Assembly: GCA_018260615.1 (NCBI GenBank)
Contig: JAGWDQ010000060.1
Span: forward strand, 1,981 to 65,980
DNA: 64,000 nt
Source of the DNA: Candidatus Altarchaeum sp.
Lineage (GTDB): Archaea; Altiarchaeota; Altiarchaeia; Altiarchaeales; Altiarchaeaceae
Direction: 5' to 3'
Shown here in pieces: positions 759-36,758 of this stretch. Numbering within the stretch: position 1 is the stretch's first letter; every line of letters starts with the position of its first letter. Under the pieces are notes generated by a model. That model was not told the origin of the DNA. It was given only the letters and a program-made list of their open reading frames with translations, and did no database searches. The translations under genes were made by a program, and so were the position numbers.

Positions 759-1064
759 TTGCTAGCAAGTGTCAGGGCAAGTGACCATTTCATTATTCCT
801 CATAAAATGCTGGCATTGGAACTGCATAAATTTTTCAAATTTCCAAAGTTGCGAATTGCTATTAACGATGAAGCGGTTCCTTTTGTTAAGGAAGGAAGAA
901 ATGTATTTGCAAAATTTGTTATTAATGCGGATAAAAATTTAAGGGCGGGAGATGAATGTTTAGTTGTTGATAAGGATGATAATTTAATTGCTACGGGAAC
1001 ATTGATGCTTGCTCCGGGAGAATGCACGAGTTTTAAGAGGGGAGTTGCTGTCAGAGTAAGGTAA
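759..1064 (+). CDS. PUA-domain protein, possibly a truncated remnant of an archaeosine-TGT/ArcS-like gene
   Basis: C-terminal FVKEGRNVFAKFV...LRAGDECLVVD...LIATGTLMLAPGE...KRGVAVRVR is a typical PUA domain. The frame is open from 687, but the first start candidates are only TTG at 759 and ATG at 804. There is no convincing N-terminal domain upstream. Confidence 0.5.
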   Translation: MLASVRASDHFIIPHKMLALELHKFFKFPKLRIAINDEAVPFVKEGRNVFAKFVINADKNLRAGDECLVVDKDDNLIATGTLMLAPGECTSFKRGVAVRVR

Positions 1065-1954
1065 TAGTAAGATAATCCGGGAAAATTTAAATTTACTGAT
1101 TTATCTTCACCCCCACTATTTGCGAGACCCCGTTTTGCATTGAAACACCAATTGCAGCATCTGAATTAAATGAAATAAAGAAACATAAGGACAACCCAAT
1201 AAAGAAATATAAAAAATCCAATGTTTCTGAATCTTTGACTTTTTCTGCATTTTTCAGAGTACGAATAAAGGATAATATAAACAAAGATTGGTAAAAAAAG
1301 CAAATATGCTAAAAAAGGTGAAGTGATGCTTATAAACAAGCACAACAATAATCCAAGCGGACCAAAAAATTTACCCAATTTAGCAAAAAATTTTCCTATG
1401 CTTGTATCTACGAGGGGGTAGTCCTTTTTTATATCTGCCAGATCTATCAGGGGTAGTTTTTTGCTTTCGCTTTCAGGAACTTCAGGAAAAAGAGATATGT
1501 CTGCAACATATCCGCACCGCATACATCTCCATGAATTTAGCGCACCAAAATTTATTCCAGCAGTGTTTGAAAAGTCGGGAGATGTATTTTCGCTGTGACA
1601 TTTTGGACATATATTTATAAATTTTTCCTCTGTTTTGTCCTTTTTTTCTTTTTCGTTAATAGTCATTTTGATAGATTTATTCTAATTTGTAAAGATATTA
1701 TTAATGCGGATAAAAATTTAAGGGCGGGAGATGAATGTTTAGTTGTTGATAAGGATGATAATTTAATTGCTACGGGAACATTGATGCTTGCTCCGGGAGA
1801 ATGCACGAGTTTTAAGAGGGGAGTTGCTGTCAGAGTAAGGTAATAGTAAGATAATCCGGGAAAATTTAAATTTACTGATTTATTTACTGATTTATCTTCA
1901 CCCCCACTATTTGCGATATGCCATTCTGCATTGAAACACCGATTGCAGCATCTG
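921..1954. mobile_element. Cassette bracketed by about 245-bp direct repeats (921-1163 and 1700-1954) that duplicate the convergent 3' ends of the PUA gene and smc
   Basis: About 185 bp (921-1105 vs 1700-1884) look identical by eye. The smc-derived part is diverged. Copy 2 has an extra 11-bp duplication, tttactgattt. The interior carries the zinc-ribbon membrane ORF. Confidence 0.6.
1166..1666 (-). CDS. Zinc-ribbon membrane protein (hypothetical)
   Basis: N-terminal CPKC...CMRC zinc-ribbon pair followed by C-terminal hydrophobic helices. The ORF lies exactly between the two direct-repeat copies. Confidence 0.55.
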   Translation of the reverse strand: MTINEKEKKDKTEEKFINICPKCHSENTSPDFSNTAGINFGALNSWRCMRCGYVADISLFPEVPESESKKLPLIDLADIKKDYPLVDTSIGKFFAKLGKFFGPLGLLLCLFISITSPFLAYLLFLPIFVYIILYSYSEKCRKSQRFRNIGFFIFLYWVVLMFLYFI

Positions 1955-4900
1955 CGTATTTCATTACATTTTCATTATGGGTTATCATTATAAATTGTCC
2001 GTCGCTCTCTTTTAGTAATCTGGCGATTTTTACCGAATTTTCAGAGTCCAAGGATGCGTCCATTTCATCAAGAACATAAAACGGTGCCGGAGAGTACTGC
2101 TGAATTGCCAGCAAAAATGCCGCACATGTTAATGCCTTCTCTCCGCCGGACATCGCATCAAGTTTTGAGACCTTTTTTCCTTTCGGAGATGCGTGAATGT
2201 TCAGGCCCGATATTGAAATATCCCTCGGATTATCTAATGTCAGGGTTCCGTAACCATCAGTAAGTTTTTTAAAAATTTCTTCAAAATTAGTCCTTATTTT
2301 TTCAAAGGCATCCATAAAGACCTCTCTCCTTCTCCTTTCAACAGATGCAATAAAATCATAGATTGCCTGTCTTTCATTCTTCAAAGTTTCAACCCTGTTA
2401 AAAATTTCATCGTGGCTTTTCTTTGCTTCGTCATAATTCTCAATTGCCCTCTGGTTGATATTTCCCATTGCCTTCAGTTTTTCATTTAGTCCGTTTATTC
2501 TGTCCATAACACTTTCTTTGCTATCTTGAGCATCAGTTATAATTTTATTGAGCTCTTCATCTGTCGTGTTCTCCGCATCCGCCGGACTTTTATTCGTTTC
2601 CTTATTCATTTTTTCAATATTCTCCGAGATCATTTTCTTGTGCTCTTCCAATTTTCCCTTCTCAATCAAAATTTTCTCAATTTGAGCCCTTACTTCTTCC
2701 TTCGCATTTAAAATTTTCTCTAATTCTATATTCAATTTTGCGATTTCTTCTTCAACATTTTTCCGTTCACCCTCTTGTCTTTGAATTGCCAGTGTCAGTT
2801 CTTTATTTTCTTCCTCTTTTTTCTTCAACTCCGCTCTTATTTTCTCTATTCTTTCGGATGTCTCTCTAATCACATCTTCGGACTGCTTTCTTTCAGCAGA
2901 CAGTTCATCAATTTTCAAATCCGAAATTTGTGTATTTGCAAAATCAGCATCCTTCTCTTTCTTCGCAAGTTCAATCTCTAAATTTTTCTTTTCATTTTTT
3001 AAATTTTCAAGCCGCTTATATTCTTCGCCCTTTATTTCCTTTTCCTGCCTTTCTAAATTTTTTCCCAGAACTTTCAGGTCATTTTCCACTCTTTCAATTT
3101 CCAGTAATAATTTTTTTCCTTCCTCCTCACTCGCTTTAATTTCACTTTCAAGGACTTTGATTTCATCTTCTTTTTCTTCCCGGTCTGCAGTCAGTGTCTT
3201 TTTTTCAATCTTTAATTTTTCAATCCCAATCTGAGCATTCGTGAGGTCTTTTTCCAAATCATCCGCACTTGCATTTTTTCTTTCCCTTACTCTTTCAATT
3301 TCTTCTTCAATTGCACTTAACTTTCCTTCAAGGGCTTTGATTTCATCGGAAATTTCGTTAAAATTTAATGTTTCTTTTATAAATCCGCCGCTTATGCTTC
3401 CTTCTCTTTCGGCAATGTCCCCGTCAAGGGAAACCATTCTGTATCTTCCGATTAGCGGTTTAAAGTCATCGGGATTTTCCACAATGATAGTATTTCGCAG
3501 TATGTATGCAATTATATTTTCAAATTTTTCATCATAAATTAAAAAGTCCCTCGCAAAGCCCAGGCCATCGGGGTTTTCATTGGGTAAATTTATATTTATT
3601 TTATTAATCGGCAGAAATGTTGCTCTTCCAATTCTTCCGGTTTTTAACAGATTTACACATTTTACCGCTGTATTTTCGTTTTCAACAACGATATTTTCCA
3701 TACGGTTTCCCGCAGCAGCATATATTGCTTTCCTGTATTTTGCATCCGAAACCCTGCACAATTCAGAAACAGTTCCATAAATACCATTCGTTGCTTTTTT
3801 CAGATAATCCGCAATTAAATTTTTTCGTAAATTTTTTAAAATTTCCTTCTTTCGCACATACTCACTCTTTATTTTTTCATAGTTCTCAATTAATTGTTCA
3901 TACTCCTTCTCTGCATTAAATTTTTCCTTTCGTATCCGTGAAAGTTTCTCAAAAATTTCTTTATATGCATAACTCTGGGCATCTATTCCTCTTGCTAATT
4001 CCTGCTCTCTCGCAAGGTATTTGGAAATTTCCGTATTATTCAGTTCAATTTTTTTGTGCTTTTGAGCAATGAATTTTGTCTGATTTTCGTATTTATTTCT
4101 CGCATCGCTGCCAGCTATTTTTTGGTCATAAATTTTGTCCTTCAGTTCCATAACATTGCTTTCAATTTCGGAAATTTTTGTGTCTTTCAATATCCGGGCA
4201 ATTTGTTCTATTCGCCCGGAAAAATTTTTTATTTGCAGAGATGAGGAAGTGAATATATTATTTAACTCGTCCTTTCTTTGGACTGCAAAATTTATTTTTT
4301 GCTCAATTTCCGACAGTTTTTTATTTTCTGCTTTTAAATACCTTTGTTCGGCATTCAGCAAAGACGCTCCATCCGATTCGCCGCGCTTTTTTTCGTTTTC
4401 AATAAGCTGTTTATTGAGGTATGAAATTTTTGTTTCAAGTTCTGTCTTCTTTGTTTTAATGTTGCTTTCACTGACTTTATACGAATCACGAACACTACAC
4501 AATTCCCTGGCTGACATCTCGCAGTCGTTAATTTTCGCCTCCGCCCCTCTTAAATTTATGTAATTAAACACTCGCTCAAGCGTCCAAATTTCCTTTTTGA
4601 TTTCTTTAAATTTTATTGCATCCTCTTTTTCTTTTTCTAAAATTTTTAAATTTTCCAGCCGCTCGTTGAGCTGGACATTTGCCCCGGAAATTTTTTCTTC
4701 AACAGATGCAAGTTCCTTAATCGCTTCGCTTTTCTTTTCATCGTAGTCGGAAATTCCGCAAATTTCATCAATAGCACCTCTCCGTTCTTTGGGACTCATT
4801 TCAATAAAATTTGTTATATCATTCTGGAGAAGTACATTATACTCATTGTCACCTATTGTTTCAAGGACTTTTTCTTTTGAGATATTTTTGTCATTTTTGG

Positions 4901-5870: not shown

Positions 5871-6009
5871 AAATTTTGATTACATTTAAAAATTTGTGTA
5901 TTTGATTTTGTCTTTGACCTCAACATTACAATAACAATTCTTGTAGTTATGTTCTTTTATGTTCTTTTTTATTTTTATTTGTATATTTAATTATATTTAA
6001 TGTCTTAAT

Positions 6010-6160
6010 TATTTAATTTATTTATATGAATATCTAATTTATTTATATGAATATCTAATTTATTTATATGAATATCTAATTTATTTATATGAATATCTAA
6101 TTTATTTATATGAATATCTAATTTATTTATATGAATATCTAATTTATTTATATGAATTCC
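6010..6160. repeat. Tandem repeat, 21-bp unit (tatctaatttatttatatgaa), about 6 perfect copies plus degenerate ends
   Basis: Unit starts at 6031, 6052, 6073, 6094, 6115 and 6136. Located in the 1.3-kb divergent smc/ftsZ intergenic region. Confidence 0.9.
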
Positions 6161-6282
6161 AAATTATTTAAGTTTATATAAGTTCATTAGAATATTTAAA
6201 TTCATAATTTAAATTAATAATATATGAAACATAATTTATTACAAAATTTAAAAAAAACAATCAAAAATATAAAAAAGGTAAA

Positions 6283-6453
6283 ATGGGGTTGCAAACACAG
6301 TTATATTTTACGGATGAGGACTCATTAAAAACGCACGAGGCATGGGGCAAGGCGTTAAAGGACTTGGGTAAAGAAGGGTCACAATATGCATTGGCACAAT
6401 TTATTAAAGATGTGTTTTTTTTTCGTCATAAAGGACGAGAAGAAAATTGCTGA
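6283..6453 (+). pseudogene. Small-protein family member (MGLQTQ...), probably frameshifted copy
   Basis: The first 47 codons match the 66-aa ORF at 26845-27045. After the T9 run (6415-6423) there is one extra c relative to the other copy, which shifts the frame and gives an early stop. The alternative frame restores VIKDEKKIAEFTGTQKTKQE. Confidence 0.45.
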
Positions 6454-6597
6454 ATTTACAGGAACACAAAAAACAAAGCAGGAATAAACAACAAATTTAC
6501 TAATTTTAAGAGGCATGAATTAATGTATAGGTACATAATCAATCATTACAAACTATCAGAATAAATATATAATAAACGATAAAATAATAAACAAATT

Positions 6598-9096
6598 TTG
6601 AAAATGGAACCTTTTGTTTACGGAAATAGTGAAGAAGTATTTAAAATGGGAAACCAAAGCAGCAATAAAAATATTGGACAACAAAGATCTACAATTTTGG
6701 GTGCTGAAGGAGTATCTACCGAAAACCCGAAAATATGCGTAGTTGGTGTCGGGGGCGGAGGATGTAATACTATTAGAAGATTATCTGAAATGGGGGTTGC
6801 ACATGAGGTTGAGTTAATAGCAATAAATACTGACATAAAACAATTGCGGATGATAGATGATTTGAGAATAAAGAAAATTTTAATAGGTGCAAAATTAACA
6901 GGGGGACAAGGTGCAGGTGGTTATCCTAATATTGGTGAAGAAGCAGCAGTAGCAAGCAATCAGGATATTGTACAAGCACTTGAAGGGGCACGAATTGTAT
7001 TTATCTCTGCAGGTATGGGAGGCGGAACAGGAACAGGTGGAGCACCCATAGTAGCAAAAATTGCAAGAAATATCGGAGCAATAGTTATAAGTGTTGTAAC
7101 ATTTCCTTTCAAACTTGAGCGTGCAAGGGTTATAAAGGGAAGAGAAGGTATTGATAAGTTAAAGCAGGTCTCACACACAGTCATTGTTTTGGATAATAAC
7201 CTGTTAGTTCAGTATGCACCGAATTTACCGATGGATGAAGCATTTAAAATTGCAGATGATGTTATCGGAAAGGCAATAGACGGAATAACTCATTCTATAC
7301 TTGTTCCAAGTTTAATAAATCTTGATCTTGCTGACTTTATGGCAATAATGAAAACAGGTGGAATGGCAATGATAAGTGTGGGCCGGGGAAGAGGTCCAAA
7401 GAAGATTGAGGATGCAGTAGCAGCAGTTAAAAACCAGCCTTTACTGGAAGTCGATACTATGGGTGCAACAGGTGCTTTGATTCACATTACGGGAGGTTCA
7501 ACGCTTTCGCTGAATGATGCAAATAAAGCAGGAACTAATCTTACAGAAAATGTAAGTCAAAATGCTCCTGTGATATGGGGTGCAAGAGTAAATGAAAAAA
7601 TGGGGGACGAAGTGGAGATTGTTTTAATTATGACAGGAATAAAGAGTAATCTCCTGTCAGGAGAAAGTAATGTTCCAATAGGGAGAAGTAGAATTAATGT
7701 ACAATCCCAACCGGCACAGCAGCAATTTCAACCGCAGCAAACACAGCCAAAAAAAGTATATGAACCAGCATGGCCAGCAGGTGGAGCCGGAAGCTACTCT
7801 CAACCGGAACAACAACAGCCTGGTTATCAGCCACAGAATCAGGGTTATACGCAACCGGAACAGGGATATGGAGTTCAACAAACACAGCCTGGTTATCAGC
7901 AACCCCATGGAAATATCCCTCAACCGCAGCAGGAATATGTACAACTACCAGAAGCACAAACAAGGCAAAGGCCGGTTTTAATTGAAGATGCAGAAGCACT
8001 TGCGAGGGAACAGGAAGCGTTGAAAAATATTTTGGGTGCAGAAGGTATTGAACTTGAAGATCCAAAGATTGATGTAATAGGTGTTGGTGGAGGAGGATGT
8101 AATAGTATTACCCGTCTTTCAGAAGCAGGACTTTCGCCAACATGTAAGAAAAGTACCCGGTTGATTGCTATAAATACGGATAAAAGGGCATTAGTTGAGA
8201 TGGTTAAAGAAGGCAAAGTACCTATTACAAAGGTATTGATAGGGGGAAAGATGACAAGAGGCATGGGAGCAGGCGGTTATCCCGAGGTTGGTGAAAAAGC
8301 AGCAGAAGAGTCCTTTAATCTTATACAGCAAGCAGTGGGAAAGCCCAATCTTGTGTTTTTGGGAATAGGTATGGGCGGTGGAACAGGAACAGGTGCGGGA
8401 CCTGTAGTAGCTAAGATAGCAAAACAGGCAGGTGCAATCGTTGTAGGAATAGTAACCTATCCGTTTAATCTTGAAAGAGCAAGAAAAGAGAAGGCGAAAG
8501 AAGGGATAGCACGACTAATGCAATACTGCGATACTGTTGTTGTAATAGACAATGAGAAATTGCGTACTGTTGTGCCAAATATGCCGATGAATGAGGCATT
8601 TATGTTCGCAGACAAAGTGATTCAGGATGCTGTTCAGGGCATTACAGAGACAATTATGACTCCGAGCTTAATAAATCTGGACTTTGCAGATATAAGATCA
8701 ACAATGGGAAATAAAGAAATTTCTTTGATTTGTGTCGGTGAAGGTGATGGTCCGGATAAGGTCAAGCAGGCAATCTCATCAACATTGAACAGGCCTTTGC
8801 TTGATGTGGATTACAGTGATATTAAAGGTGCATTAATTCACATAACCGGAGGAGCAAATATGACTCTGAATGAAGCACATGCTATTGGAGATGGCATAAG
8901 TAAGAGTGTCAAAAAGGACGCAAATGTTGTATGGGGCGCAAGAATTGATGAAAAACTTGGAGACAAAATTAAAGTAGTAGCAATACTTACGGGTGTAAAA
9001 GGGCTGAGTATTCCTGTTGCAGGAAGTGGGAAGGGCAGTAGATATGCCTCTTCACCAATAAGTATTTTTGATGATCTGGGAATAACCTACTTATAA
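6598..9096 (+). CDS. ftsZ: Tandem-fused double FtsZ (two complete FtsZ cores joined by a Q/P-rich linker)
   Basis: Core 1 has GVGGGGCN, AGMGGGTGTGGAP and SLINLDLAD. Core 2 has GVGGGGCN, IGMGGGTGTGAGP and SLINLDFAD. The low-complexity linker spans about nt 7650-7990. The real start is probably ATG at 6604 or 6646. Confidence 0.9.
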   Translation: MKMEPFVYGNSEEVFKMGNQSSNKNIGQQRSTILGAEGVSTENPKICVVGVGGGGCNTIRRLSEMGVAHEVELIAINTDIKQLRMIDDLRIKKILIGAKLTGGQGAGGYPNIGEEAAVASNQDIVQALEGARIVFISAGMGGGTGTGGAPIVAKIARNIGAIVISVVTFPFKLERARVIKGREGIDKLKQVSHTVIVLDNNLLVQYAPNLPMDEAFKIADDVIGKAIDGITHSILVPSLINLDLADFMAIMKTGGMAMISVGRGRGPKKIEDAVAAVKNQPLLEVDTMGATGALIHITGGSTLSLNDANKAGTNLTENVSQNAPVIWGARVNEKMGDEVEIVLIMTGIKSNLLSGESNVPIGRSRINVQSQPAQQQFQPQQTQPKKVYEPAWPAGGAGSYSQPEQQQPGYQPQNQGYTQPEQGYGVQQTQPGYQQPHGNIPQPQQEYVQLPEAQTRQRPVLIEDAEALAREQEALKNILGAEGIELEDPKIDVIGVGGGGCNSITRLSEAGLSPTCKKSTRLIAINTDKRALVEMVKEGKVPITKVLIGGKMTRGMGAGGYPEVGEKAAEESFNLIQQAVGKPNLVFLGIGMGGGTGTGAGPVVAKIAKQAGAIVVGIVTYPFNLERARKEKAKEGIARLMQYCDTVVVIDNEKLRTVVPNMPMNEAFMFADKVIQDAVQGITETIMTPSLINLDFADIRSTMGNKEISLICVGEGDGPDKVKQAISSTLNRPLLDVDYSDIKGALIHITGGANMTLNEAHAIGDGISKSVKKDANVVWGARIDEKLGDKIKVVAILTGVKGLSIPVAGSGKGSRYASSPISIFDDLGITYL

Positions 9097-9220
9097 GAAC
9101 CACGGGTAATAACAATAAAGGCAGCAAAACCAAAGAAAAATTTATTTTTTAATTTTTTTAATCTTTTTTAATTTTAAATTAACATACTAGTATAAAACAA
9201 ATAACATTAAATTTATAAAA

Positions 9221-27116: not shown

Positions 27117-27172
27117 TTATTTGTTTATTTTATTTGTTTATTTTATTTGTTTATTTTATTTGTTTATTTATT
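27117..27172. repeat. Tandem repeat, 13-bp unit (atttgtttatttt) x about 4
   Basis: A g recurs at 27123, 27136, 27149 and 27162. The array lies upstream of the paralog array. Confidence 0.8.
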
Positions 27173-27268
27173 TTAAATCTTATTTATATAATAACAACTT
27201 TAATCTGATTAAAGTAGGTTTTTAAAATTTAAATTTAAAATTTAATAAAAATTTAAGAGGTGAAAAAA

Positions 27269-28192
27269 ATGAATGAAACGAAAAGCAACAAAACAATAAC
27301 GGAAAATTTTTTTGAATATTTAAGGTATCATCCGATAAGCAGTAAATCGTTTATCTTATATTTTTTGGGTTTGCTGGGGGCAATTATTATTTTCTTTTTA
27401 ACAGGAGAAACATACATTTTTAGTATTGTTCAGATTACCTGTACTCTATTATTATTTTGGTTTTTGGTTGTTCCAATCGCATTAAAAACGAGAAGTAAGT
27501 ATATGGTTTATTCTACTCTCTTTCCGTTTGTGTTTTTAGGTTTGTTCATTGTTGCGTACCTATTTTTCATGCTCATCAACATAAACATCGCTGAACTGAT
27601 TAAGTTATTGGTAAGAGAACAGCCATTAGTCGGTGCATTTGTTATGTTAGCAATAATTCTCGGCTCTGTTGCATTTTTTATTTACCTTTTGATAAAATAC
27701 CAAAAATCAGATGTGTGGTTTCAGAGTTTATGGATACAAGAAGGAGGAGTTATTGTAAAGACCGCTGATAAAATTTATTCGACACAGGACGGATACAGCG
27801 AAAGACCTTATTCCTGTCAAATGAAAATTTCTAATTTAAATTTTTCAGATATTGAAAATTTTGCGAAATTGCTCGCTAAAAATTTAATAATTATCAACTG
27901 GAAAAACCGGGAAAATTCGGTTAAGATGTGGCTTCTTGTGAGGAGAAGTTTCATTACCTATTTTGATGTATTCTATTCGGAAAATCTCGGCTCGTGGATT
28001 GAAATAAACAAGGATTGAAAACTTGTGGTTTTTATTGCAAAGCCAGATTATAAAATCATCGGAAAAGAGATAACTTATCATATACTTTGCAGTAATATTG
28101 CAGAAAAATTTGAACAGTCATTTACTGAATTTGCGAAAGGAAGCAACGATAGCAAAATTAATTCAATTAAAATTTTAAAAGGTGAAAAATGA
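27269..28192 (+). pseudogene. Membrane-protein paralog 1 of the five-gene array, interrupted by an in-frame TGA
   Basis: TGA at 28016-28018 is in frame. Downstream, the same frame continues KLVVFIAKPDYKIIGKEITYHILCSNIAEKFEQSFTEFAKGSNDSKINSIKILKGEK*, matching the family C-terminus. The start at ATG 27269 is chosen by homology to paralog 2. Confidence 0.6.
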
Positions 28193-29124
28193 ATGAAACA
28201 GGAAAAAGCAACAAAACAATAACGGAAAATTTTTTTGAATACTTAAGGTATCATCCGATAAGCAGTAAATTACAGATATTATTTTTTGTTGGATGTTTGG
28301 GCATACTTATTGCTTCTTTCTTATTCCCAAATATTTCCTCTTTTATGTCATTTCCTATTTGGATAGTATATTTCTTTTTGATGTGGCTTCCTATTGTTCC
28401 GATTGCATTGAAAACGAGAAGTAAATATGCCATTTCTCTCGCTATTGCTATAATTGGCTTTTTGTTGTTGTTTATCTTATTATCTGTCATACAATATTTG
28501 TTTCCGGATATTATATCTGCCATAATTTCAAAAGCAATTATATTAATGACAAGGGAACAGCCGTTATTTGGTGCATTGCTTATCACAGCAGTAATTGTTG
28601 GATTTTTTGGGCTTTGGATGAAATACAGTAAATCAGAGTTTGGGATTCAGGATGTATGGATACAAAAAGGAGGTGTTATTGGAAATGCAGCCAGTCAAAT
28701 TTATTCAACCCAGGATGGATATAGTGAAAGACCATATTCATATCAAATGAAAATTTCCGGTTTAAATTTTTCCGATATTGAAAATTTTGCGAAATTTCTT
28801 GCGAAAAATTTGATAATCATCAACTGGAAAAACCGGGAAAATTCGGTTAAGATGTGGCTTTTTGTAACGAGAAGCTTCATTAGTTATTTTGATATATTTT
28901 ACTCTAAAAATGAAAATCTTGGCACATGGATTGAAATAAACAAAGAGGGAAAAATAATCGTTTTCATAGCGAAGCCGGATTATAAAAATATTTATCGGGA
29001 AGTAACTTATCACACATTATGCAAAAATTTAGCAGAAAAATTTGAACAGTCATTTATTGAATTTGCGAAAGGAAGCAAGGATGATAAAATTAATTCAGTT
29101 AAAATTTTAAAAGGTGAAAAATGA
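28189..29124 (+). CDS. Membrane-protein paralog 2 (unrecognised family)
   Basis: About 4 hydrophobic helices followed by the conserved C-terminal domain. ATGA overlaps with both neighbours. Confidence 0.75.
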   Translation: MNETGKSNKTITENFFEYLRYHPISSKLQILFFVGCLGILIASFLFPNISSFMSFPIWIVYFFLMWLPIVPIALKTRSKYAISLAIAIIGFLLLFILLSVIQYLFPDIISAIISKAIILMTREQPLFGALLITAVIVGFFGLWMKYSKSEFGIQDVWIQKGGVIGNAASQIYSTQDGYSERPYSYQMKISGLNFSDIENFAKFLAKNLIIINWKNRENSVKMWLFVTRSFISYFDIFYSKNENLGTWIEINKEGKIIVFIAKPDYKNIYREVTYHTLCKNLAEKFEQSFIEFAKGSKDDKINSVKILKGEK

Positions 29125-30128
29125 ACGAAACAACATTTTTGTATTTATTTGTAGGGGCAATAATAATATTAATTATAATTATGACTGTAATAATCGGATG
29201 GAAATTTAATCTGTGGAGAAGACAAAAATTTGTAAAAAATTTGAATGAAAGGGAAAAGAAAAGATGGCAACGACTTGAAAAATACCGAGTATCCAAGGGA
29301 GGTTATAAAAAAGGTTTTGTAATTTTGTTTGCTGCTATGATTATTCCCTGGATATTGATGTTGGTTTTTCACATATCTTTTAAAACAACGATGTTGTTTG
29401 GGGCAGTAATATTTATTCCGGTTCTCATTCCTCATCTTTGGTTTGTATTTAAAAGAAAGAACAGGGACGAAATAATAACTGTTATTTTTTTATTTGGGAT
29501 ATATATGGGTGTATGTGTGTGGTATCTCGGATATGAATTTGTTAAATACTTTTTACAAATTACCCTTTTCATTTTTATTTTTTACTGGCAGCTATTCAAA
29601 ATGAAAGGTGAACAGGAACAAATGGCAATATACTGTAATCTGATTGTAAGTGCCGGATTGGATATGGACTCACAACTTGACGGCTATTCTCAAAGACCAT
29701 TCAGTAAAGAATCTGCTGCGATAAAAGAAATATTCAAAGCAGGCGAAAATAATTTAAATTTAAATTTCAAAAAAATCGCGGATGATTTTGGAAAAACAAC
29801 AGGTAAAAAAATGATATTGATGGACTGGAAAATTAATGATAATGAAGCGGTGTTTTATCCGGTTACTGCTTATCTGCTTATCGCGCAAATTTATTTAATA
29901 TTGCCGTCACTTGGAAAAGATAAAATTTCGTGGATTAAATTAAGTAGTGATGGAAGAATAACTGTTTTTGTATCAAAAGGCGATTATGATAGAATTCTGG
30001 AGAAAGTAACTTATCACACTCTATGCCAAATCCTCATAGAAAGATTTGAACGAGCATTCATTGAATTTGCGAAAGGAAGCAATGATGATAAAATTAATGC
30101 AATTAAAATTTTAAAAGGCGAAAAATGA
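29121..30128 (+). CDS. Membrane-protein paralog 3 (unrecognised family)
   Basis: Same architecture, with the basic loop REKKRWQRLEKYR after the first TM helix. ATGA overlaps. Confidence 0.75.
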   Translation: MNETTFLYLFVGAIIILIIIMTVIIGWKFNLWRRQKFVKNLNEREKKRWQRLEKYRVSKGGYKKGFVILFAAMIIPWILMLVFHISFKTTMLFGAVIFIPVLIPHLWFVFKRKNRDEIITVIFLFGIYMGVCVWYLGYEFVKYFLQITLFIFIFYWQLFKMKGEQEQMAIYCNLIVSAGLDMDSQLDGYSQRPFSKESAAIKEIFKAGENNLNLNFKKIADDFGKTTGKKMILMDWKINDNEAVFYPVTAYLLIAQIYLILPSLGKDKISWIKLSSDGRITVFVSKGDYDRILEKVTYHTLCQILIERFERAFIEFAKGSNDDKINAIKILKGEK

Positions 30129-31123
30129 ACGAACAAATATCCGAAATTATTTTATCTGTCGTATTGCAGATAGTATTTGCAGGACTTATTGTCGGAATGG
30201 TGTTGCTAATGATATATTATTATGACAAAAGAGAGAAATGGATAAAAAGTATGAATGATTCGGAGAGAAAGAAATGGGAACAATATCAAAAATATAAAAA
30301 ATCTCAAGGGGGCGGATTGAAGGGAATAATATTTGTTTTCTCTTTTATTGCAGTTATTGTTTTGGGGGCAGTTTTCCTGGATATCAAAATAATAATGCTT
30401 TTCCTCGCAATAATTTATACACTCTTCTTTCTTATCCATGTGCGATTTGTATTAAAAACAAGAAACAAGGACGGGGTTATCTTGATTATAGGGATAATAT
30501 TTATGTTGATTTGGATTGTGTCTTTCCTATTTGAAAAACATTCTGGTGATGCGTTATTTATGTCGATAGGAATGCTTCTGCTAATGTATGGGAATAGTGG
30601 TGTAAAGGCGGAAAAAAGAAATATGAATTTGCATCATAATCTCGTTGTAACCTCAGGGTGTGAAATTGATTCGCATTTAGACGGTTATTCTCAAAGACCT
30701 TTCAGTATGGAATCCAATGCCATAAAAGAAATTTTTAGGGATGATAAAAACACATTGAAATTAAATTTTATGAAAATTTCAGAAAATTTTGCAAAAACAA
30801 TGGGAAAGGACTTAATTTTTATGGACTGGAAGGTTAGCGAAAATGAAGCATTATTTTATCCTGTTGTGTTTCCCATGTCCCAGATATATTTGATGTTTCA
30901 CTCGCTCAGGAAAAACAAACTTTCCTGGATAAAGATAAATAACGAAGGAAGGATAACTGTTTTTGTGTCAAAAGATGACTATAAAAAAATTTTAGAGCAG
31001 GTAACTTATCACGCATTGTGCAGGAATATTGCAGAAAAATTTGAACGAGCATTTATTGAATTTGCGAAAGGAAGCAAAGATAATAAATTTAATGCAATTA
31101 AAATTTTAAGAGGTGAAAAATGA
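30125..31123 (+). CDS. Membrane-protein paralog 4 (unrecognised family)
   Basis: Same architecture and closest to paralog 3. ATGA overlaps. Confidence 0.75.
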   Translation: MNEQISEIILSVVLQIVFAGLIVGMVLLMIYYYDKREKWIKSMNDSERKKWEQYQKYKKSQGGGLKGIIFVFSFIAVIVLGAVFLDIKIIMLFLAIIYTLFFLIHVRFVLKTRNKDGVILIIGIIFMLIWIVSFLFEKHSGDALFMSIGMLLLMYGNSGVKAEKRNMNLHHNLVVTSGCEIDSHLDGYSQRPFSMESNAIKEIFRDDKNTLKLNFMKISENFAKTMGKDLIFMDWKVSENEALFYPVVFPMSQIYLMFHSLRKNKLSWIKINNEGRITVFVSKDDYKKILEQVTYHALCRNIAEKFERAFIEFAKGSKDNKFNAIKILRGEK

Positions 31124-32046
31124 ACGAAATCAATAAAAAACAAAAGGAACTTGAAACAAATTATGAAATTTACAGACAGAATAAATCTTTGAGGTCAGGT
31201 GCGTTACTTTTTCTCTTCATATCATTTCTTTGTATTGGGATGTGTGTTTTATTATATTTTGTATTTCACATTTCAATTAATCCCGTTTATGGAATGATGT
31301 TTCTATTGATTTTGGCGATGGGGTCTATGTCAATCATCGCTGGAAAAATTGCGTTAAAAACAAGAAATGTTGTTGGGATTATGCTGTTTATTATATCATT
31401 TGCAACGACAATTGAGTTGATACTTCTTATGTATTTTTCTGAACTTAATGAATGGGAGATGGTGGTAAGAGCATACATTCTGTTCGCTGTAATCATAATA
31501 TTTGTGCTTTATATTGCCAAGAAAAAATTTAATATAAAAATGTATGGAAGTCAAGCAATGCTCCTTGATTATAGAAATGTGATAATCAAAGAAGGCGAGC
31601 AAATTGATATTCTGACAGACGGATATTCCCAGAGGCCATTTAGCAAGGAAAGTGAAGCAATAAAAAATGTGGAAAATTTTAAAAATAACGCAGAAAATTT
31701 TGCAAAAATTTTAGGAAAAGAAGGGATAATTATGGACTGGAATACAAAGGAAAATTCAATAACTTTATTTCCGCCAATATTTATGGAAGATTTATTCGTA
31801 TCTGTCTTATATCTGATTCAATTAACATTCCGAAAAAAGAAACTTTCTATGGTTAAAATATCTTCTGACGGGCAAATAACTGTATTCATATCAGATGATG
31901 ACTATAAAAGAATAACAAGACCTGTTGCTTATCATCTCCTGTGCAGAGGATTGGCGGAGAAATTTGAACGAGCATTTGTTGAATTTGCGAAAGGAAATAA
32001 AGATAGCAAAATTAATACATTAAAAATTTTGAAAGGTGAAAAATAA
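31120..32046 (+). CDS. Membrane-protein paralog 5 (unrecognised family, most divergent)
   Basis: Retains DGYSQRPFSKESEAIK, MDW, ITVFISDDDY, AYHLLC and AEKFERAFVEFAKGNKDSKINTLKILKGEK. Confidence 0.75.
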   Translation: MNEINKKQKELETNYEIYRQNKSLRSGALLFLFISFLCIGMCVLLYFVFHISINPVYGMMFLLILAMGSMSIIAGKIALKTRNVVGIMLFIISFATTIELILLMYFSELNEWEMVVRAYILFAVIIIFVLYIAKKKFNIKMYGSQAMLLDYRNVIIKEGEQIDILTDGYSQRPFSKESEAIKNVENFKNNAENFAKILGKEGIIMDWNTKENSITLFPPIFMEDLFVSVLYLIQLTFRKKKLSMVKISSDGQITVFISDDDYKRITRPVAYHLLCRGLAEKFERAFVEFAKGNKDSKINTLKILKGEK

Positions 32047-32065
32047 AAATTGTTAAAATGTTAAA

Positions 32066-33361
32066 ATGGACAAACTAAAAAAGTATGCTACATTGATGTT
32101 GACCTGCCTAAAAGAATATGAAACAACGGGGCAAAAGATGCCCTGCATTTTGAACTATGCGGACTGCGCCAGAGAGATGGGATATTTACATTTTTCAATC
32201 AGAGTATACGAATGGCTGCTTGACGAATATCCTGATAATATGGAAGTAAAAAAATCCCATAAAAAAGCAAAAGATATGCTGGAGTTAGACAGCGCTGGTG
32301 CATTTATGCAAAAATCTGGTTTTCCGGAACCAGATCTTTTGATAAGGGAAAATTTTCACGGGATAACGCTCAGTTTGTGTATGATCGCCAAAAACGAGGA
32401 AAATAACATCAAACGGGCGATAGAAAGCGTGCGTCTGATAGCAGACGAAATGATTGTAGTAGATACCGGATCTACTGATAATACCCCTAAAATCGCGAAG
32501 GCGTATGGCGCAAAAGTGTTTGATTACAAATGGAATGATAATTTCAGCGAAGCCAGAAATTTTTCCCTTGAACAGGCAGGTATGGAATGGATTTTAGTTC
32601 TCGATGCTGATGAGACGATAGCGTATGAAGATCTGTTCTATATAAAAGAGACCATAAAAGAAATGGAAATAGCAAAGAAATCGGGAAAGCTCGAAGGTAA
32701 AAGAGCTGATGGATTCGCACTCGCCATAAGAGAATACACTTATTTTAATATGCTTGGTGGGTTTGACACGAAAGATGACTTTTATGCAGAGAGCAAACCC
32801 TACAAATCATGGATAGAACAACGGCTCGTTCGTCTCTTTCGCAATATGCCTCACATAAGGTATATGTATCCGGTCTATGAAATAATTGAGGAATCGATAT
32901 GCACAAATGGGGGTACTTTTTATCATGTAGGCATTCCCATACATCATTTTGGACGCACCGTCAGCATGGAAAAACAGCGGAGCAAAAGGAGGTACTACAT
33001 CAAAATTTTAGAGGAACATTTGAAGATATCGGAGGAATGCGATAACTATAAGGCAGTTTATTGCACCAATCTGGGCAACGCATACACTTTTATGGGCGAA
33101 CTTGAGAATGCTATGAAATACTTCAAAAAGGCGCTGGAATACGATGATAGTATATCCGTTACTTATGTTTGTATCGGTAAGAATGCGATGATGAGGAAAA
33201 ATATCATTGAAGCAATCAAATATTTTGAGAAAGCCATTGAAATGGAGAAGAACAACCCCGAGCCGTTTCGTCTTCTCGTCCAATGTTACAATAGTTGTTA
33301 TAAGTTTAGTGAAGCCAAACGTGTAATGGAGGAAGCACATCGCGAGGGGCACGAAATTTAA
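32066..33361 (+). CDS. Family 2 glycosyltransferase with flanking TPR-like regions
   Basis: GT2 core: SLCMIAKNEENNI...VVDTGSTDNT...NFSEARN...LDADE. C-terminal TPR repeats: LGNAYTFMGELENAMKYFKKALEYD... Confidence 0.8.
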   Translation: MDKLKKYATLMLTCLKEYETTGQKMPCILNYADCAREMGYLHFSIRVYEWLLDEYPDNMEVKKSHKKAKDMLELDSAGAFMQKSGFPEPDLLIRENFHGITLSLCMIAKNEENNIKRAIESVRLIADEMIVVDTGSTDNTPKIAKAYGAKVFDYKWNDNFSEARNFSLEQAGMEWILVLDADETIAYEDLFYIKETIKEMEIAKKSGKLEGKRADGFALAIREYTYFNMLGGFDTKDDFYAESKPYKSWIEQRLVRLFRNMPHIRYMYPVYEIIEESICTNGGTFYHVGIPIHHFGRTVSMEKQRSKRRYYIKILEEHLKISEECDNYKAVYCTNLGNAYTFMGELENAMKYFKKALEYDDSISVTYVCIGKNAMMRKNIIEAIKYFEKAIEMEKNNPEPFRLLVQCYNSCYKFSEAKRVMEEAHREGHEI

Positions 33362-33417
33362 ACGAATTCCAAAAATTAGCGAATAAGCACGAAATAAAAA
33401 AAAGAAAAATAAAAAGA

Positions 33418-33981
33418 ATGAACTACATAATCATAGATTTGGAAGCAACATGCGACGATAAAGTTAAGAACATGGTGCATGAAATAATTGAAATCGGGGC
33501 TGTAAAAATAAACGAAAACGGAGAAATTATTGATGCATTTGACGAATTTGTCAAGCCAATTATCAATCCGACATTAAGCGAATTTTGCAAAAATCTTACC
33601 CAAATAAACCAGTCGCAAACAGATAAAGCGGAAAATTTTTTAACAGTTATTGAAAAATTTAAAAGGTGGCTCAATGATGATTATTTCCTTTGCTCCTGGG
33701 GACATTATGATAGAAAGCAACTGATAAATGATTGTTCATTGCACAATCTTGACAGCAAATGGACAGAAAGGCACATAAGCATTAAGCACGAGTATGCAAA
33801 AATCAATAAATGCAAACCATGCGGCATGTCAAAGGCATTAGAAAAAGAACACATAACGCTGACAGGAACACATCACAGGGGCATTGATGATGCAAAAAAT
33901 ATTGCAAAAATTTTTATAAAGTATTTTGAGGTATTCAAGAAAATCATAAATGAACAGGTCTCACAAAATAAAGAAATTTAA
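33418..33981 (+). CDS. DEDDh 3'-5' exonuclease (KapD/ERI-1-like)
   Basis: Exo I is IIIDLEAT, Exo II is SWGHYD and Exo III is HRGIDDAKN. Confidence 0.8.
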   Translation: MNYIIIDLEATCDDKVKNMVHEIIEIGAVKINENGEIIDAFDEFVKPIINPTLSEFCKNLTQINQSQTDKAENFLTVIEKFKRWLNDDYFLCSWGHYDRKQLINDCSLHNLDSKWTERHISIKHEYAKINKCKPCGMSKALEKEHITLTGTHHRGIDDAKNIAKIFIKYFEVFKKIINEQVSQNKEI

Positions 33982-33995
33982 TAAAAAAATTTCCA

Positions 33996-34604
33996 ATGAA
34001 TAAAGAACAATTTGCCCGGACATTATCTATATTGGGCAAGGAACACTGCATTGATGTAATTGAAACATTATACATTAAGGAATGGTGCACTGCAACCGAA
34101 ATTTCAGAGGAATTGAAAATTCACACGGCAACAGCAGTAAGTTATTTATCTGACCTGCACGATATTGGGCTTGCGGAAAGGAGAATAAGGGGGGGAAAAT
34201 ATAAGGATGCTTATGAATATTCCTTAAAAAGCACATCAATAAATTTAAATCTAAATTTTAAGGAAATAGTTGAAGAGGAAGGTAAGGGCATAACCGAAAG
34301 AGCAGGACTTATAAAAGTGAAAGAAATCGTGAGTGATAATTTGAATTATGAATGGGATGATGAGAAGCAAAAAATTTTAAAGATCAATATTGTCAGTGCA
34401 GGAATCAGGCGGGGTGTCCAGGAATCAATTGAATTAAATACATTAGAAGGAAGGTTTTTGTGGTGTGTGCCTTACCCGTCTGAAGAAGGTCTGTCGGTAG
34501 AACAAATTTGCGAAAATGCGGGAATAAAAAATCCGATAGAAATTAAAAAGATTTTGAAATTTGTTGAGATTTTGAAAGAAAAAAGAGTTATTGAAATTTT
34601 ATAA
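33996..34604 (+). CDS. Winged-helix (ArsR/TrmB-like) DNA-binding protein
   Basis: The N-terminal IDVIETL...CTATEISEELKIHTATAVSYLSDLHDIGLAERR region is wHTH-like. The function of the C-terminal half is unknown. Confidence 0.6.
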   Translation: MNKEQFARTLSILGKEHCIDVIETLYIKEWCTATEISEELKIHTATAVSYLSDLHDIGLAERRIRGGKYKDAYEYSLKSTSINLNLNFKEIVEEEGKGITERAGLIKVKEIVSDNLNYEWDDEKQKILKINIVSAGIRRGVQESIELNTLEGRFLWCVPYPSEEGLSVEQICENAGIKNPIEIKKILKFVEILKEKRVIEIL

Positions 34605-34639
34605 ATTTTTGTGCATATCGGGTTGATTTTATGAAGCCA

Positions 34640-35608
34640 TCAAATTCTTTCAATAACTGATATTAATTTTGTATAAAACATCCTGTTTACAACCAAAGGA
34701 GAGACCTCTTTAGGTAAAGCGTGTATGTAATCAGAATACTTTTTCTTTATGATGAAAACATCTATTGTTTTTATTATCGTCTTTGTTATTTCATGAGTCC
34801 TGTTTTCCTCACCTAAAATATGTTTCATTTTTAATCTGCAACTTTCAATGTCCTCATCGGTAATTATTACGGATAACATACCAAGGTCATATAAATCCTT
34901 AAACTTTTCTCTATTCCTAAAAGCAATTAATTTATCTGCAAATAAATCTCCAACAGACAAACATTTAAATTGTAATTCCTTCTTATATTCCTGATATTTA
35001 TAAATTTTCAACCTAATATCCTGCATATTCCACTTTAATGCAGGTGGTTTATGTTTTATATTTATCTGAACAAGAATGTGATTAAAAATGCCTGACAAAT
35101 ACTCTTTGTTTACAAGGTCCTTTCTATAAGCAATTCTTAAATTTCTTGCTACGACTTTGGATGGAAACACTCTTGCAAAAGTTATAGTTCCTGAAATTTT
35201 ATCAAAATACATAGGATAAAATTTTCCATAGATTAAATTTTTCGAACTCCTGTTTTTATACTTCGAATCAATGGAGGAAATTAACAAATCCATTTCCTTT
35301 AATTTCTCATTTAATTCATCAAACTTCTCCAAAACAAATTTGTTTGTTCTGCTCTCTGTTTCTATGTTAAAATCCAAATCTACCGAAAACCTCTGAAGAT
35401 TTAATGGCAAGAGGGATTGTATGCATGTGCCTCCTTTAAAGAATAAATCCATATTTGAGAATTCTTTTAAAATGAACATTGTATCATATTCAAATATTTG
35501 TTTTTCAAAATCCATGTGATTTATTCCTTCACGATTAGAATATTCTCTTATTTTTGCCCCGTTAAATGCCTCTTTTCCCCAAAATAACGACTTAATATCC
35601 TCTGACAT
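34640..35608 (-). CDS. Nucleotidyltransferase AbiEii/AbiGii-family toxin (DUF1814-like)
   Basis: The motif FFKGGTCIQSL...QRFSVDLDFNIE matches the family pattern GGTAL...R.S.DiDF. Confidence 0.72.
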   Translation of the reverse strand: MSEDIKSLFWGKEAFNGAKIREYSNREGINHMDFEKQIFEYDTMFILKEFSNMDLFFKGGTCIQSLLPLNLQRFSVDLDFNIETESRTNKFVLEKFDELNEKLKEMDLLISSIDSKYKNRSSKNLIYGKFYPMYFDKISGTITFARVFPSKVVARNLRIAYRKDLVNKEYLSGIFNHILVQINIKHKPPALKWNMQDIRLKIYKYQEYKKELQFKCLSVGDLFADKLIAFRNREKFKDLYDLGMLSVIITDEDIESCRLKMKHILGEENRTHEITKTIIKTIDVFIIKKKYSDYIHALPKEVSPLVVNRMFYTKLISVIERI

Positions 35609-36371
35609 TTTTTCCGGATTTTTTTATAATTTTCAAAATATTTACAGGAATATTTTTATCCCCATCAAAATATTTTTTTAAATAATACAGATTAGGTTTC
35701 TTTTCACATAACTTTTCAAATTCATCATTTGTCATGCCATAGTCAAGTGCTTTCATAGTATATTCAAACAGGTCATTTTTTGGAAAATCAATTTCTTCCA
35801 ATATGATTTCTATGTCAGGTAAATTTAAATCACCATTAAATTTTAATTTTCGGATATTATGTGAAGATTTTCTTATAATTATCGCATATCCTCTTGTTAG
35901 TGCGTCAGTTATAATTTTGTTTTTATTACAATGTTTTGGAATTTCATAAGGTAAAATTGTCGCAAATTTACTTAAATTTTCAACTATTCTCCCAGCCAAC
36001 ATGTTATATTTGTTTTTTGGCAGAGCAATATCTATTTTTCTTTGATACATCGCATGATCAGTTAACCCGTGCAAAAACAGGGCAGATTCTCCGGTTATAT
36101 AGTAATTCCTCATAAGGAGCTTGTCTATCCCGGAAAGTATATTCACCTCTTTCTTTTTTATAGTTTGTCTATTGTATTTAAACAACTGTTGTCTTTCTTT
36201 GCCGGGCTTCCATAAAAGGATATCTTTACCGGCTAATGTCCAGCACACCCTTTCTGCTTTTGGATAAGTGATTCTAAGAGATAAAGCTATTTTTCCCAAA
36301 CTGGTCCATTCTGTAAAGTGTTCTAATCCGTTTACAATTTCCTCATCTATTTTTATAGGGATGAAGTCCAT
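35592..36371 (-). CDS. Putative AbiEi-like antitoxin/transcriptional regulator
   Basis: Overlaps the AbiEii gene by 17 nt and lies upstream and co-directional. It is 259 aa with a wHTH-like N-terminal region. The assignment is based on context. Confidence 0.5.
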   Translation of the reverse strand: MDFIPIKIDEEIVNGLEHFTEWTSLGKIALSLRITYPKAERVCWTLAGKDILLWKPGKERQQLFKYNRQTIKKKEVNILSGIDKLLMRNYYITGESALFLHGLTDHAMYQRKIDIALPKNKYNMLAGRIVENLSKFATILPYEIPKHCNKNKIITDALTRGYAIIIRKSSHNIRKLKFNGDLNLPDIEIILEEIDFPKNDLFEYTMKALDYGMTNDEFEKLCEKKPNLYYLKKYFDGDKNIPVNILKIIKKSGKNVRGY

Positions 36372-36758
36372 GGTAAAAATTTATCAAAATTATTATAAAA
36401 TTAAGAATGTATTATAAAATTACATGCATAGCAATTAATAATTTTCGTTAATTGCCTGTATATGTATGTGCTTCATTTTATTAAATCTATAATTATGTTT
36501 CCTCCATTATTTTATAAATTAAGCAGAGTTCATATAAAGGAGAACATAAGGGATGATGTGAATGTAAATCAATTTATCAGCAGAACAAATTTGCGAAAAT
36601 GCGGGAATAAAAAATCCGATAGAAATTAAAAAGATGTTGAAATTTGTTGATGTTTTGAAAGAAAAAAGAGTTATTGAAATTTTATAAATTTTTGTGTCTA
36701 AATTTAATTCTTTAAATTCAAATTTTAAATATTGTAAAAACAAAAATATAAAAGCAAA

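Follow-up and report, generated by a model that had tools for sequence, protein, structure and literature searches.

The subject of this analysis is a set of seven loci, in a 64,000-nucleotide stretch of DNA from Candidatus Altarchaeum sp. (contig JAGWDQ010000060.1, positions 1,981 to 65,980; hereafter the window), at which the end of a host gene occurs twice. At 7/7 loci an insert lies between direct repeats of a conserved stretch of the host gene. Pfam and PADLOC confirm the identities of the hosts, which encode PUA and SMC proteins, a polyprenyl synthase, Lhr, a UbiX-type flavoprotein and an NTP-transferase/hexapeptide (GlmU-like) protein, with a wHTH protein at the last locus. They likewise confirm the identities of the cargo (PIN, PIN_2, VapC-type PIN, MNT and AbiEii); the cargo of the first locus is a zinc-ribbon ORFan. 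The loci are labelled L1 to L7. An arm is one repeat copy beside the cargo, the copy within the intact gene is called working, and the leftover copy redundant or displaced.

All seven pairs had been pointed out in a preliminary description of the window, and all were recovered at the positions claimed there by a repeat finder, by self-BLAST of the 64-kb window and by pairwise alignment. They span 25-257 bp at 79-100% identity, lie within 36 kb, and score 50-432 in flank-to-flank local alignment, compared with maxima of 25-33 for shuffled sequence. Some points of that description needed correction. Most arms are closer to each other than its word "diverged" suggests, and the small gene that it assigned to every locus is supported elsewhere but missing from L2, which holds 94 bp of non-coding DNA.

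The window strain is Ca. Altiarchaeales archaeon HGW-Altiarchaeales-1, and the HGW genomes originate from Horonobe groundwater (PMC5520028). Three assemblies of this strain (JGI, NCBI-MAG and ENA) were compared; their contigs are 99.99-100% identical to the window, with the same junctions in all three. Two strains of 95-98% identity coexist at the site. The second, called here the sister strain, comes from another sample (contigs L088, L089, L092, L095, L097, L099 and L101) and also has the architecture of loci L1-L6, with 2-5% divergence spread over arms, cargo and junctions. The relatives compared were L001 (isolate GA_1_1), L083 (a Logan assembly), L002, L004, L042, L081 and L087.

Layout of the seven loci

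At L1 (919-1163 versus 1698-1954; 257 bp, 93% identity) the repeat covers the 3' ends of two genes. Arm A (919-1163) holds the working PUA 3' end (to 1064), a 28-bp spacer and a redundant smc 3' fragment of 23 in-frame codons (1093-1163), an allele also found in the sister strain (L101). Arm B (1698-1954) holds a redundant PUA 3' fragment (1698-1843), a spacer with a 12-bp duplication and the working smc 3' end (1884-1954). The cargo (1164-1697, reverse strand) is the 166-aa zinc-ribbon ORFan at 1166-1666, whose stop codon lies 2 nt from arm A and for which the sole protein cluster found contains two sequences; the sister strain has a 166-aa open reading frame (ORF) at the same position, with a nucleotide match of ~97%. 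NCBI's annotation lists the redundant PUA fragment as protein-coding (1595-1843; P0183, CVT88_01845), an example of how displaced gene ends inflate gene counts when called as genes. In one assembly of the sister sample, an extra gene for a 326-aa membrane or secreted protein, with no arms, lies between the smc stop and the redundant PUA fragment (L099 11754-13072) and is a polymorphism of this junction within the population. The sister strain also carries active insertion sequence (IS) copies with a DDE transposase, the terminal inverted repeat (TIR) CACCGATTTTCGCA and the 5-bp target duplication TTAAA (L097 14081-14286, L101 6364-6484, L089 14947-16152). The stop codon of the L1 cargo is the precise site of one copy, a second lies upstream of lhr, and the sister contigs break because of these copies. 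The sequence that follows the sister L1 cargo was considered as a different left junction and rejected, being an IS with TIRs and a 5-bp target duplication.

The 3' end of lhr is repeated at L4 (18521-18608 versus 19544-19631; 94%). Arm A (18521-18608, forward strand) lies inside the working lhr and ends with ...KYKD, where Lhr tails turn hypervariable between lineages. The segment that would be imported (18609-19543, reverse strand) comprises Lhr tail1 (18609-18664), a spacer, VapC (18852-19268) and VapB (19259-19495). It is followed by the displaced lhr 3' end (19544-19689, forward strand), in which arm B (19544-19631), with two in-frame stops, continues through tail2 into the end of the HAD gene. 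The preliminary description had correctly noted that the lhr 3' copies differ in their tails; the working tail1 is a different Lhr tail, still with the family ending EEN[LYF], and tail2 of the displaced copy is the ancestral one. A 126-bp palindromic element resembling a miniature inverted-repeat transposable element (MITE; GTGAATTCAC...GTGAATTCAC) lies at 18776-18901 within the 3' end of the VapC gene, where it alters the VapC C-terminus. It recurs at 61613-61757 and in L083 (831-870), and is absent from the VapC site in the sister strain. The duplication 18756-18903/61613-61757, considered as the relic of a cassette at a second site, was rejected because it is this insertion.

At L7 (34499-34613 versus 36582-36696; 97%), arm A (34499-34613, forward strand) is the working wHTH 3' end and carries three private substitutions within 17 nt, all conservative (M>I, D>E, V>I). 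The cargo (34614-36581, reverse strand) consists of AbiEii (34640-35608) and a putative AbiEi (35592-36371) that has no Pfam or PADLOC hit and is labelled from position alone. The displaced wHTH 3' end (36582-36722, forward strand) comprises the repeat copy (36582-36696) and the ancestral downstream flank. The wHTH gene belongs to a 10-kb island (26857-36673) absent from L001, which further contains five tandem paralogous membrane-protein genes (27260-32046), a GT2/TPR protein and an RNase_T-like exonuclease; no recombinase was found among the island ORFs scanned. Beyond L7, a geranylgeranyl-reductase-like gene is cut to 87 aa in the window (36759-37022) and has its full 458 aa in the sister strain (L095 4847-6223), where it is preceded by genes for a 197-aa protein and a HEAT-repeat protein that are both missing from the window.

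The remaining four loci involve 5' ends. At L2 (11554-11767 versus 11862-12056; 79% including indels, 92.5% across 22 codons), the displaced copy (11554-11767, forward strand) contains hairpin elements, the upstream region and the first 22 codons of the polyprenyl synthase gene (ATG 11701), and the working copy (11862-12056, forward strand) the upstream region and the gene's 5' end (ATG 11990). The 94 bp between them (11768-11861) recur downstream of the prenyl synthase gene in the sister strain (L092 7951-8185). The 5' end of this gene is single-copy in L001, L042 and L083.

At L3 (14630-14725 versus 16008-16103; 85%), the displaced lhr 5' end (14630-14725, forward strand) comprises 17 nt of upstream sequence and 26-27 codons, in line with the 27 codons of the preliminary description, and retains the consensus residues YEILHPAVKE. 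The cargo (14726-16007, forward strand) includes a PIN protein (14805-15290, forward), a 51-aa ORF (15268-15423, reverse) and a run of small hairpin repeats; it is present in the sister strain (L092) and absent from L001, L083 and L042. The working lhr 5' end (16008-16103, forward strand) starts with GTG at 16025, and sister contig L088 has the same working allele together with the cassette-side flank. Farther upstream lies the oldest lhr 5' coding relic (14540-14563, forward strand), which is common to L004 and L081 and longer there, covering lhr codons about 30-41. The MTase-lhr junction also holds an arm-less pair of PIN_2 toxin (13716-14168) and RHH antitoxin (14175-14411) genes (13716-14411, reverse strand), absent from L001, L042, L002 and L083. 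Two families of intergenic hairpin repeats are concentrated in and around the cassettes, one at 5388, 11572, 11882 and 15528 and the other at 5681, 15748, 15880 and 54117.

At L5 (20898-20981 versus 21484-21566; 85%) the working ubiX 5' end (20898-20981, reverse strand; ATG 20977) has a non-ancestral upstream sequence. The cargo (20982-21483, reverse strand) encodes an MNT nucleotidyltransferase (21082-21414), and within the same segment lies a third, more decayed ubiX 5' relic (~21016-21118). The displaced ubiX 5' end (21484-21566, reverse strand) has a 1-nt frameshift and is contiguous with the ancestral upstream region of L001 and L083. The stacked relics at the 5' ends of lhr and ubiX show that each of these sites was hit more than once. 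At L6 the repeat is short and exact (25 bp): the working GlmU-like start (26811-26835, reverse strand) has its ATG within the repeat, the cargo (26836-27066, reverse strand) is a 66-aa ORF at 26845-27045 that is absent from L001, and the displaced start occupies 27067-27091 (reverse strand). A second copy of the 66-aa ORF, without arms, is found at 6259-6477. An AT-rich array of 13/17-bp units lies beside the L6 arm (27090-27188), and an AT-rich 21-bp tandem array at 5974-6183. The preliminary description had placed the 5' insertions between promoter and start codon, which has to be amended, since the displaced copy itself holds a start codon and 7-27 codons.

Empty sites and ancestral gene ends

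In L001 and L083, the genes for GAPDH, prenyl synthase, MTase, Lhr, HAD and UbiX form a compact, cassette-free layout in which each gene end is single and the 3' ends of lhr and HAD share 6 nt (L083). Compared with this layout, which covers the gene order from GAPDH to ubiX and leaves L1 outside the comparison, the window holds inserts at nearly every gene junction. The preliminary description had suggested comparing relatives for the presence or absence of each cassette, and empty sites were indeed found in L001, L083 and the sister strain: MTase, lhr, HAD and ubiX are contiguous in L001 and L083, L001 lacks the 66-aa ORF, and the sister strain lacks the AbiE pair. The insertions are thus polymorphic. 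The single wHTH 3' end of the sister strain leads directly into the flank found after copy B in the window, and as the AbiE pair is missing there, L7 is the youngest event. A decayed arm around the alternative cargo that the sister strain carries at the wHTH gene was not significant.

These comparisons also give the copies a polarity. At L4, copy B is followed by tail2 and the HAD overlap, in full agreement with L001, L042 and L083; at L5, the displaced copy runs into the L001-type upstream region, and the region upstream of the working copy differs; at L7, copy B equals the sister strain and L004 at 3/3 positions where the two arms differ. The alignments thus show that the redundant copy is usually the ancestral end and the working end beside the cargo a different allele (L4, L5, L7): as the redundant copies continue into ancestral flank, the old end was pushed outward, and the new end would have come with the cargo. 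The arms of L2 are sister copies and fall outside this test, and L6 is ambiguous. No long replacement tract was found in lhr beside the cassettes, as the 5' end is 87.8% identical to L001, compared with a gene mean of 89.6%, and only tail1 is aberrant.

The arms of several loci differ as alleles do. Those of L3 are 83.5% identical to each other and 91-92% to L001, with no shared derived sites, and those of L5 are 84.8% identical to each other versus 87.5-88.6% to L001; across L3 and L5 the arms share 0-2 derived sites. At these two loci the arms are not each other's closest relatives. Pooled over six loci, 34/56 differences between arms fall at third codon positions (P=2.5e-5 against uniform decay), as would be expected of alleles that evolved inside working genes. 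The preliminary description held that the redundant copies do not look like random decay, but at L4 and L5 the two stops and the frameshift show that the fossil copies have decayed to some extent.

The most informative arms are those of L1 in the sister strain, which are 87% identical across all 257 bp. Between their working and redundant coding parts, 13/18 differences are third-position and 10/15 changed codons synonymous (P=8.5e-4), and the redundant fragments (71 codons) contain no stop or frameshift in spite of 13% divergence. Both arms are chimeric: arm A joins a resident PUA end to a foreign-type smc end, and arm B a foreign-type PUA end to a resident smc end, which, judged from these alleles, is exactly what a Campbell crossover in the spacer would predict. 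The two window arms agree fully (100% identity) in their PUA part, and their differences are concentrated in the smc end, with a 12-bp indel besides. This identical part, of 190 nt, carries the arm-B allele and is a gene-conversion tract relative to the sister strain, so the arms have since converted each other. Together with a 17-nt patch of foreign type in arm A of L7, the chimeric arms of the sister strain fit a Campbell or ends-in event, in which arms are part resident and part donor.

Proposed displacement of gene ends and rival explanations

With a probability of about 0.6, these patterns reflect gene termini that were displaced when DNA of diverged Altiarchaeum lineages entered by one-ended homologous recombination of the insertion type. 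The donor would be such a lineage, already bearing the accessory gene beside the same conserved core gene. Once its DNA enters the cell, the sole usable homology would be the conserved core-gene end, and a single crossover of a circularised fragment, or an ends-in event resembling homology-facilitated illegitimate recombination (HFIR), would bring in the cargo together with the donor gene end, displacing the resident end outward as a redundant fragment. On this view the repeat would be bounded on its outer side by the limit of homology between lineages, whether a start or stop codon, a variable spacer or the hypervariable tail of Lhr, and on its inner side by the end of the incoming fragment. 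As genes in this compact genome abut or overlap, selection would presumably remove any insertion that neither brings nor preserves a complete gene end. The arms could later undergo mutual gene conversion (L1 of the window), decay (L4, L5) or renewed displacement with stacking of relics (lhr 5', ubiX 5'). What we infer is the pathway of recombination, which form the intermediate took and how the DNA entered the cell; a circular intermediate and a linear one-ended event (HFIR) give the same pattern here and cannot be told apart. The preliminary description had preferred a movement of cassettes between related genomes with gene ends as homology arms, and was largely right in outline, with the mechanism not proven: the empty sites, the ancestral flanks, the arms of L3 and L5, the codon bias and the chimerism at L1 favour it, and no donor was found.

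Several observations weigh against this displacement. No donor genome with any cassette in a duplication-free native position was found, the protein clusters of the MNT, VapC and AbiEii cargo hold only the two Horonobe strains, and no cassette homologs occur in other contexts among the relatives compared. In L087 a VapBC pair does lie beside lhr, at the MTase-lhr junction, but it is a different pair from that of the window, an independent insertion, and has no duplication. Both repeat edges of L1 lie inside coding sequence, so a plain piece of some genome whose genes are intact cannot be the source of the first unit. The arms of L2, L4 and L7 are each other's closest relatives, with 5-8 shared derived sites, which points to a very close donor or later gene conversion and equally to duplication in situ. 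Under the stricter null of a neutral fossil beside a constrained gene, the third-position bias is marginal (P=0.013 at 45% expected, 0.07 at 50%). Displacement also assumes competence and recombination proficiency in this uncultivated archaeon. Finally, arms are present at 6/15 cassettes in the window; around the nine other accessory insertions, which include PIN_2/RHH, a SEC-C gene, the second 66-aa ORF copy and two VapBC pairs, none scored above shuffled controls. With 9/15 cassettes arm-less, displacement is not the sole route of entry, and the cassette architecture described earlier as recurrent is real at seven loci, frequent but not universal.

An origin in situ, the main rival, is unlikely, though far from negligible. 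Tandem duplication, template switching, or the filling-in of a widely staggered break as DNA is captured illegitimately would first copy the gene end on the spot, and the cargo would land in the harmless spacer so formed; the arms would be identical at first and diverge later, as the working gene evolves under constraint or receives an allele by ordinary homologous recombination and the fragment becomes a fossil. Such an origin accounts readily for the sister arms of L2, L4 and L7, for L2 as a near-plain 308-bp tandem duplication with only 94 bp between the copies, for the edges of L1 inside genes and for the stops and the frameshift of the decaying copies, and the codon bias is weak against it. 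It fits poorly with L4, where tail1 is wholly unlike tail2 and the fossil tail2 matches L001 and L042, so that the working tail would need to have evolved faster than a neutral fossil. At L5 the region upstream of the working copy is non-ancestral, and at L7 all three changes are in the working copy, within 17 nt, and none in the neutral one. The arms of L3 and L5, moreover, are farther from each other than from the empty-site L001, and the redundant fragments of L1 have kept their frame despite their divergence.

A bolder version of the preferred displacement holds that the arm-cargo-arm unit propagates itself without a recombinase, popping out as a circle by recombination between its arms and entering relatives with the same core gene, and that this is a general, unrecognised route for defence and toxin-antitoxin (TA) genes in archaea with compact genomes. 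This is speculative and rather improbable; if true, core-gene ends would be universal landing pads, with a role like that of attC and attI for integrons.

Gene-end duplication is a classic mark of site-specific integration with a substitute end, as in icd/e14, and the cassettes could accordingly be remnants of integrase-borne elements from which all but the TA or defence module was deleted, or integrase-less elements mobilised in trans. TA modules resist loss, and IS copies are active in the sister strain. Even so, this explanation is very improbable. As the preliminary description had stated for the cassettes, no integrase, transposase or Pfam recombinase, nor a remnant of an integrase, was found among the cassette ORFs and the other window ORFs scanned. 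The seven targets are all different and share no junction core, the repeats are long (up to 257 bp) and diverged, unlike short identical att cores, and the cargo borders are tight, as at the L1 stop codon. The recent AbiE insertion, missing from a 96% identical strain, already consists of just two genes. Nor does a transposon fit: the cargo lacks TIRs, and its repeats of variable length (25-257 bp) are unlike a fixed-length target duplication; the genuine IS of the sister strain, with its TIRs and 5-bp duplication, provides the contrast.

A dedicated recombination system that recognises gene termini and inserts cassettes there, the alternative offered in the preliminary description, is slightly less probable again and can be regarded as very doubtful. 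It would explain the recurrence at seven gene ends in 36 kb and the regular orientation, with 5' insertions co-directional and 3' insertions convergent, and an exact 18-bp motif, AAACGCAAGACATCAGTT, lies upstream of the displaced 5' copies of both L2 (11671) and L3 (14564). This motif was rejected as a shared junction signal because it overlaps a common hairpin-repeat family. Junctions have no sequence or structure in common: tabulated together, they show locus-specific sequences only, with no shared motif and no att- or attC-like core. The window ORFs scanned include no candidate enzyme, repeat length varies tenfold from locus to locus (25-257 bp), and most cassettes have no arms. The outer edges coincide with the ends of homology between lineages, which homology-driven recombination explains with no new enzyme. 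That co-occurring strain variants were chained into one contig, producing a false arm-cargo-arm order, has a negligible probability and is rejected: two closely similar strains do share the site, one scaffold is gapped and another contig terminates at the repeat near 18.5-18.9 kb, but the junctions agree among the three assemblies and recur in the diverged sister strain of a different sample, and the arms bear an evolutionary history (gene conversion; an IS insertion with its own target duplication).

Known systems and neighbouring elements

The closest known counterpart is C-terminal displacement in rhs genes, in which direct repeats of the core lie beside non-homologous tips, and dissociated tips that lack a start decay downstream (Jackson et al., 2009; PMC2935791). 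For the displacement of Rhs tips and for the effector-immunity arrays of type VI secretion systems (T6SS), the proposals are HFIR or a circular intermediate that undergoes one crossover, and the model for the arrays invokes HFIR (PMC2935791; Kirchberger et al., 2017; PMC5361080). As in Rhs, contact-dependent inhibition (CDI) and T6SS loci, incoming DNA at the Altiarchaeum loci would anchor on a conserved resident part and bring a gene end with a linked small gene, with no integrase. As in Rhs, the old end is displaced as a start-less fragment with a direct repeat and slowly decays, and repeated events stack relics (three ubiX 5' copies; lhr 5'). Unlike in Rhs, the hosts are housekeeping genes (smc, lhr, ubiX, prenyl synthase and sugar nucleotidyltransferase, and also PUA and wHTH) rather than polymorphic toxin genes, what arrives is another allele of the same gene end and no new toxin domain, 5' ends are displaced besides 3' ends, the cargo consists of TA or defence genes rather than immunity genes, and the host is an archaeon. 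No selective logic such as toxin diversification applies here.

In naturally transformable bacteria, HFIR anchors foreign DNA by homology on one side and joins the other end without homology (PMC5361080, citing de Vries and Wackernagel, 2002, and Prudhomme et al., 2002; PMC3240628). In those accounts, as at the loci described here, no dedicated recombinase or specific site is required. Where HFIR would join by microhomology or none, the inner edges of the repeats show short similarities (GATAT at L4, TC.G..AGAAC at L7), which are not distinguishable from chance in DNA of 33% GC. The difference is that the anchor is duplicated here, and this takes either a second copy of the chromosome or an incoming molecule with circular or ends-in geometry. 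In the laboratory, HFIR typically leads to a loss of recipient DNA at the illegitimate joint instead of duplicating the anchor, and it is not known to have been demonstrated outside bacteria. Campbell-type insertion-duplication, in which the single crossover of a circle ("pop-in") yields arm-cargo-arm with chimeric arms, is known mainly as a laboratory tool or from plasmid integration at IS copies; it matches the chimeric L1 arms of the sister strain and the later recombination between arms seen as gene conversion in the window. No report was found in the literature of cassettes of 0.2-2 kb entering repeatedly by this means in nature at the ends of many core genes. In transformation merodiploids of Streptococcus pneumoniae, a fragment that is taken up and is repeated in part in the chromosome can pair in alternative ways between chromosome copies and so yield duplications (Johnston et al., 2013; PMC3784515). 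This is similar in that incoming DNA can make duplications without special enzymes; unlike the 25-257 bp of gene end found here, those duplications are 100-900 kb long, IS-bordered and unstable.

Two further comparisons had been drawn in the preliminary description. In e14 at icd and in islands that target tRNA genes, the host gene is kept whole by a substitute end that comes with the insert, and one redundant copy is left over; these elements are much larger, carry integrase genes, depend on a single specific att core and affect 3' ends only. The window differs in its seven unrelated sites, its variable repeat length and the lack of an integrase in the scanned ORFs, so Rhs displacement (PMC2935791) is a better match than the icd prophage named earlier as a partial precedent. 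The analogy with integrons is inexact. Like small promoter-less integron cassettes, which gather at a fixed place and commonly carry TA genes, the 5' insertions are co-directional with the host promoter. Unlike integrons, the loci show no IntI, attI or attC-like structure: no integrase was found in the scanned ORFs, the cassette edges are host-gene repeats with no shared palindrome, and each site has its own arms of host coding sequence.

The pattern is thus known from bacterial Rhs and T6SS toxin loci; the literature searched held no description of it for Altiarchaeales, and no report was found of ordinary core genes as hosts or of an archaeal setting. How small TA and defence genes without mobility genes enter chromosomes is poorly understood, notably in archaea and uncultivated lineages. 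The locus offers a dated series, with an old event marked by stacked relics, intermediate ones common to two strains and a recent one in a single strain, and each event left a diagnostic scar in the form of a displaced gene end. If the displacement reading is correct, ordinary homologous recombination with one-sided homology suffices to move accessory genes between related genomes, conserved gene ends serve as landing sites, and the scars can be used to census events and to recover fossil alleles of core genes. It would extend the idea of Rhs tip displacement past toxin genes, and as a multi-locus, time-layered natural example it makes recombinase-free cassette acquisition in an uncultivated archaeon testable.

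Other repeats and small elements were recorded in the same DNA. Two duplications, 41115/55421 and 44085/58184, were considered as gene-end duplicates and rejected, as they are intergenic MITE or hairpin elements. The first is a MITE-like element of ~104 bp with the TIRs GGTAACTACTC...GAGTAGTTACC (window 41115-41218 and 55421-55523), which in L001 lies directly after lhr (6111-6215). The second is a long-hairpin element of ~107 bp (CTCACACAAAG...CTTTGTGTGAG) found directly after the stop codons of unrelated genes (44085-44191, 58184-58290, 54038-54211) and could be a terminator-like repeat that is mobile. In the Crystal Geyser lineage L045, repeats that both begin with TTATAGTCATTTT bracket a convergent CBS/ParB-like ORF at a nitroreductase 3' end and an IS-type transposase (9183-9304 versus 10464-10585; 4154-4244 versus 7075-7165); they form an ambiguous parallel and may be IS-related rather than the same phenomenon.

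Beside a dehydroquinate synthase II gene, a 74-aa N-terminal fragment of an AAA_15/OLD-type ATPase (50002-50226) is probably the remnant of a lost defence gene. An 832-aa ORF of two fused FtsZ/tubulin units (6598-9096) is followed by a third FtsZ gene (9221-10282). Between FtsZ and GAPDH, the sister strain has a diacylglycerol-kinase-like gene (L092 5008-5470) that is absent from the window (10356-10498), an indel without arms. A 784-aa TPR/metallo-beta-lactamase gene contains an in-frame tandem repeat of 3 x 90 bp (53252-53521).

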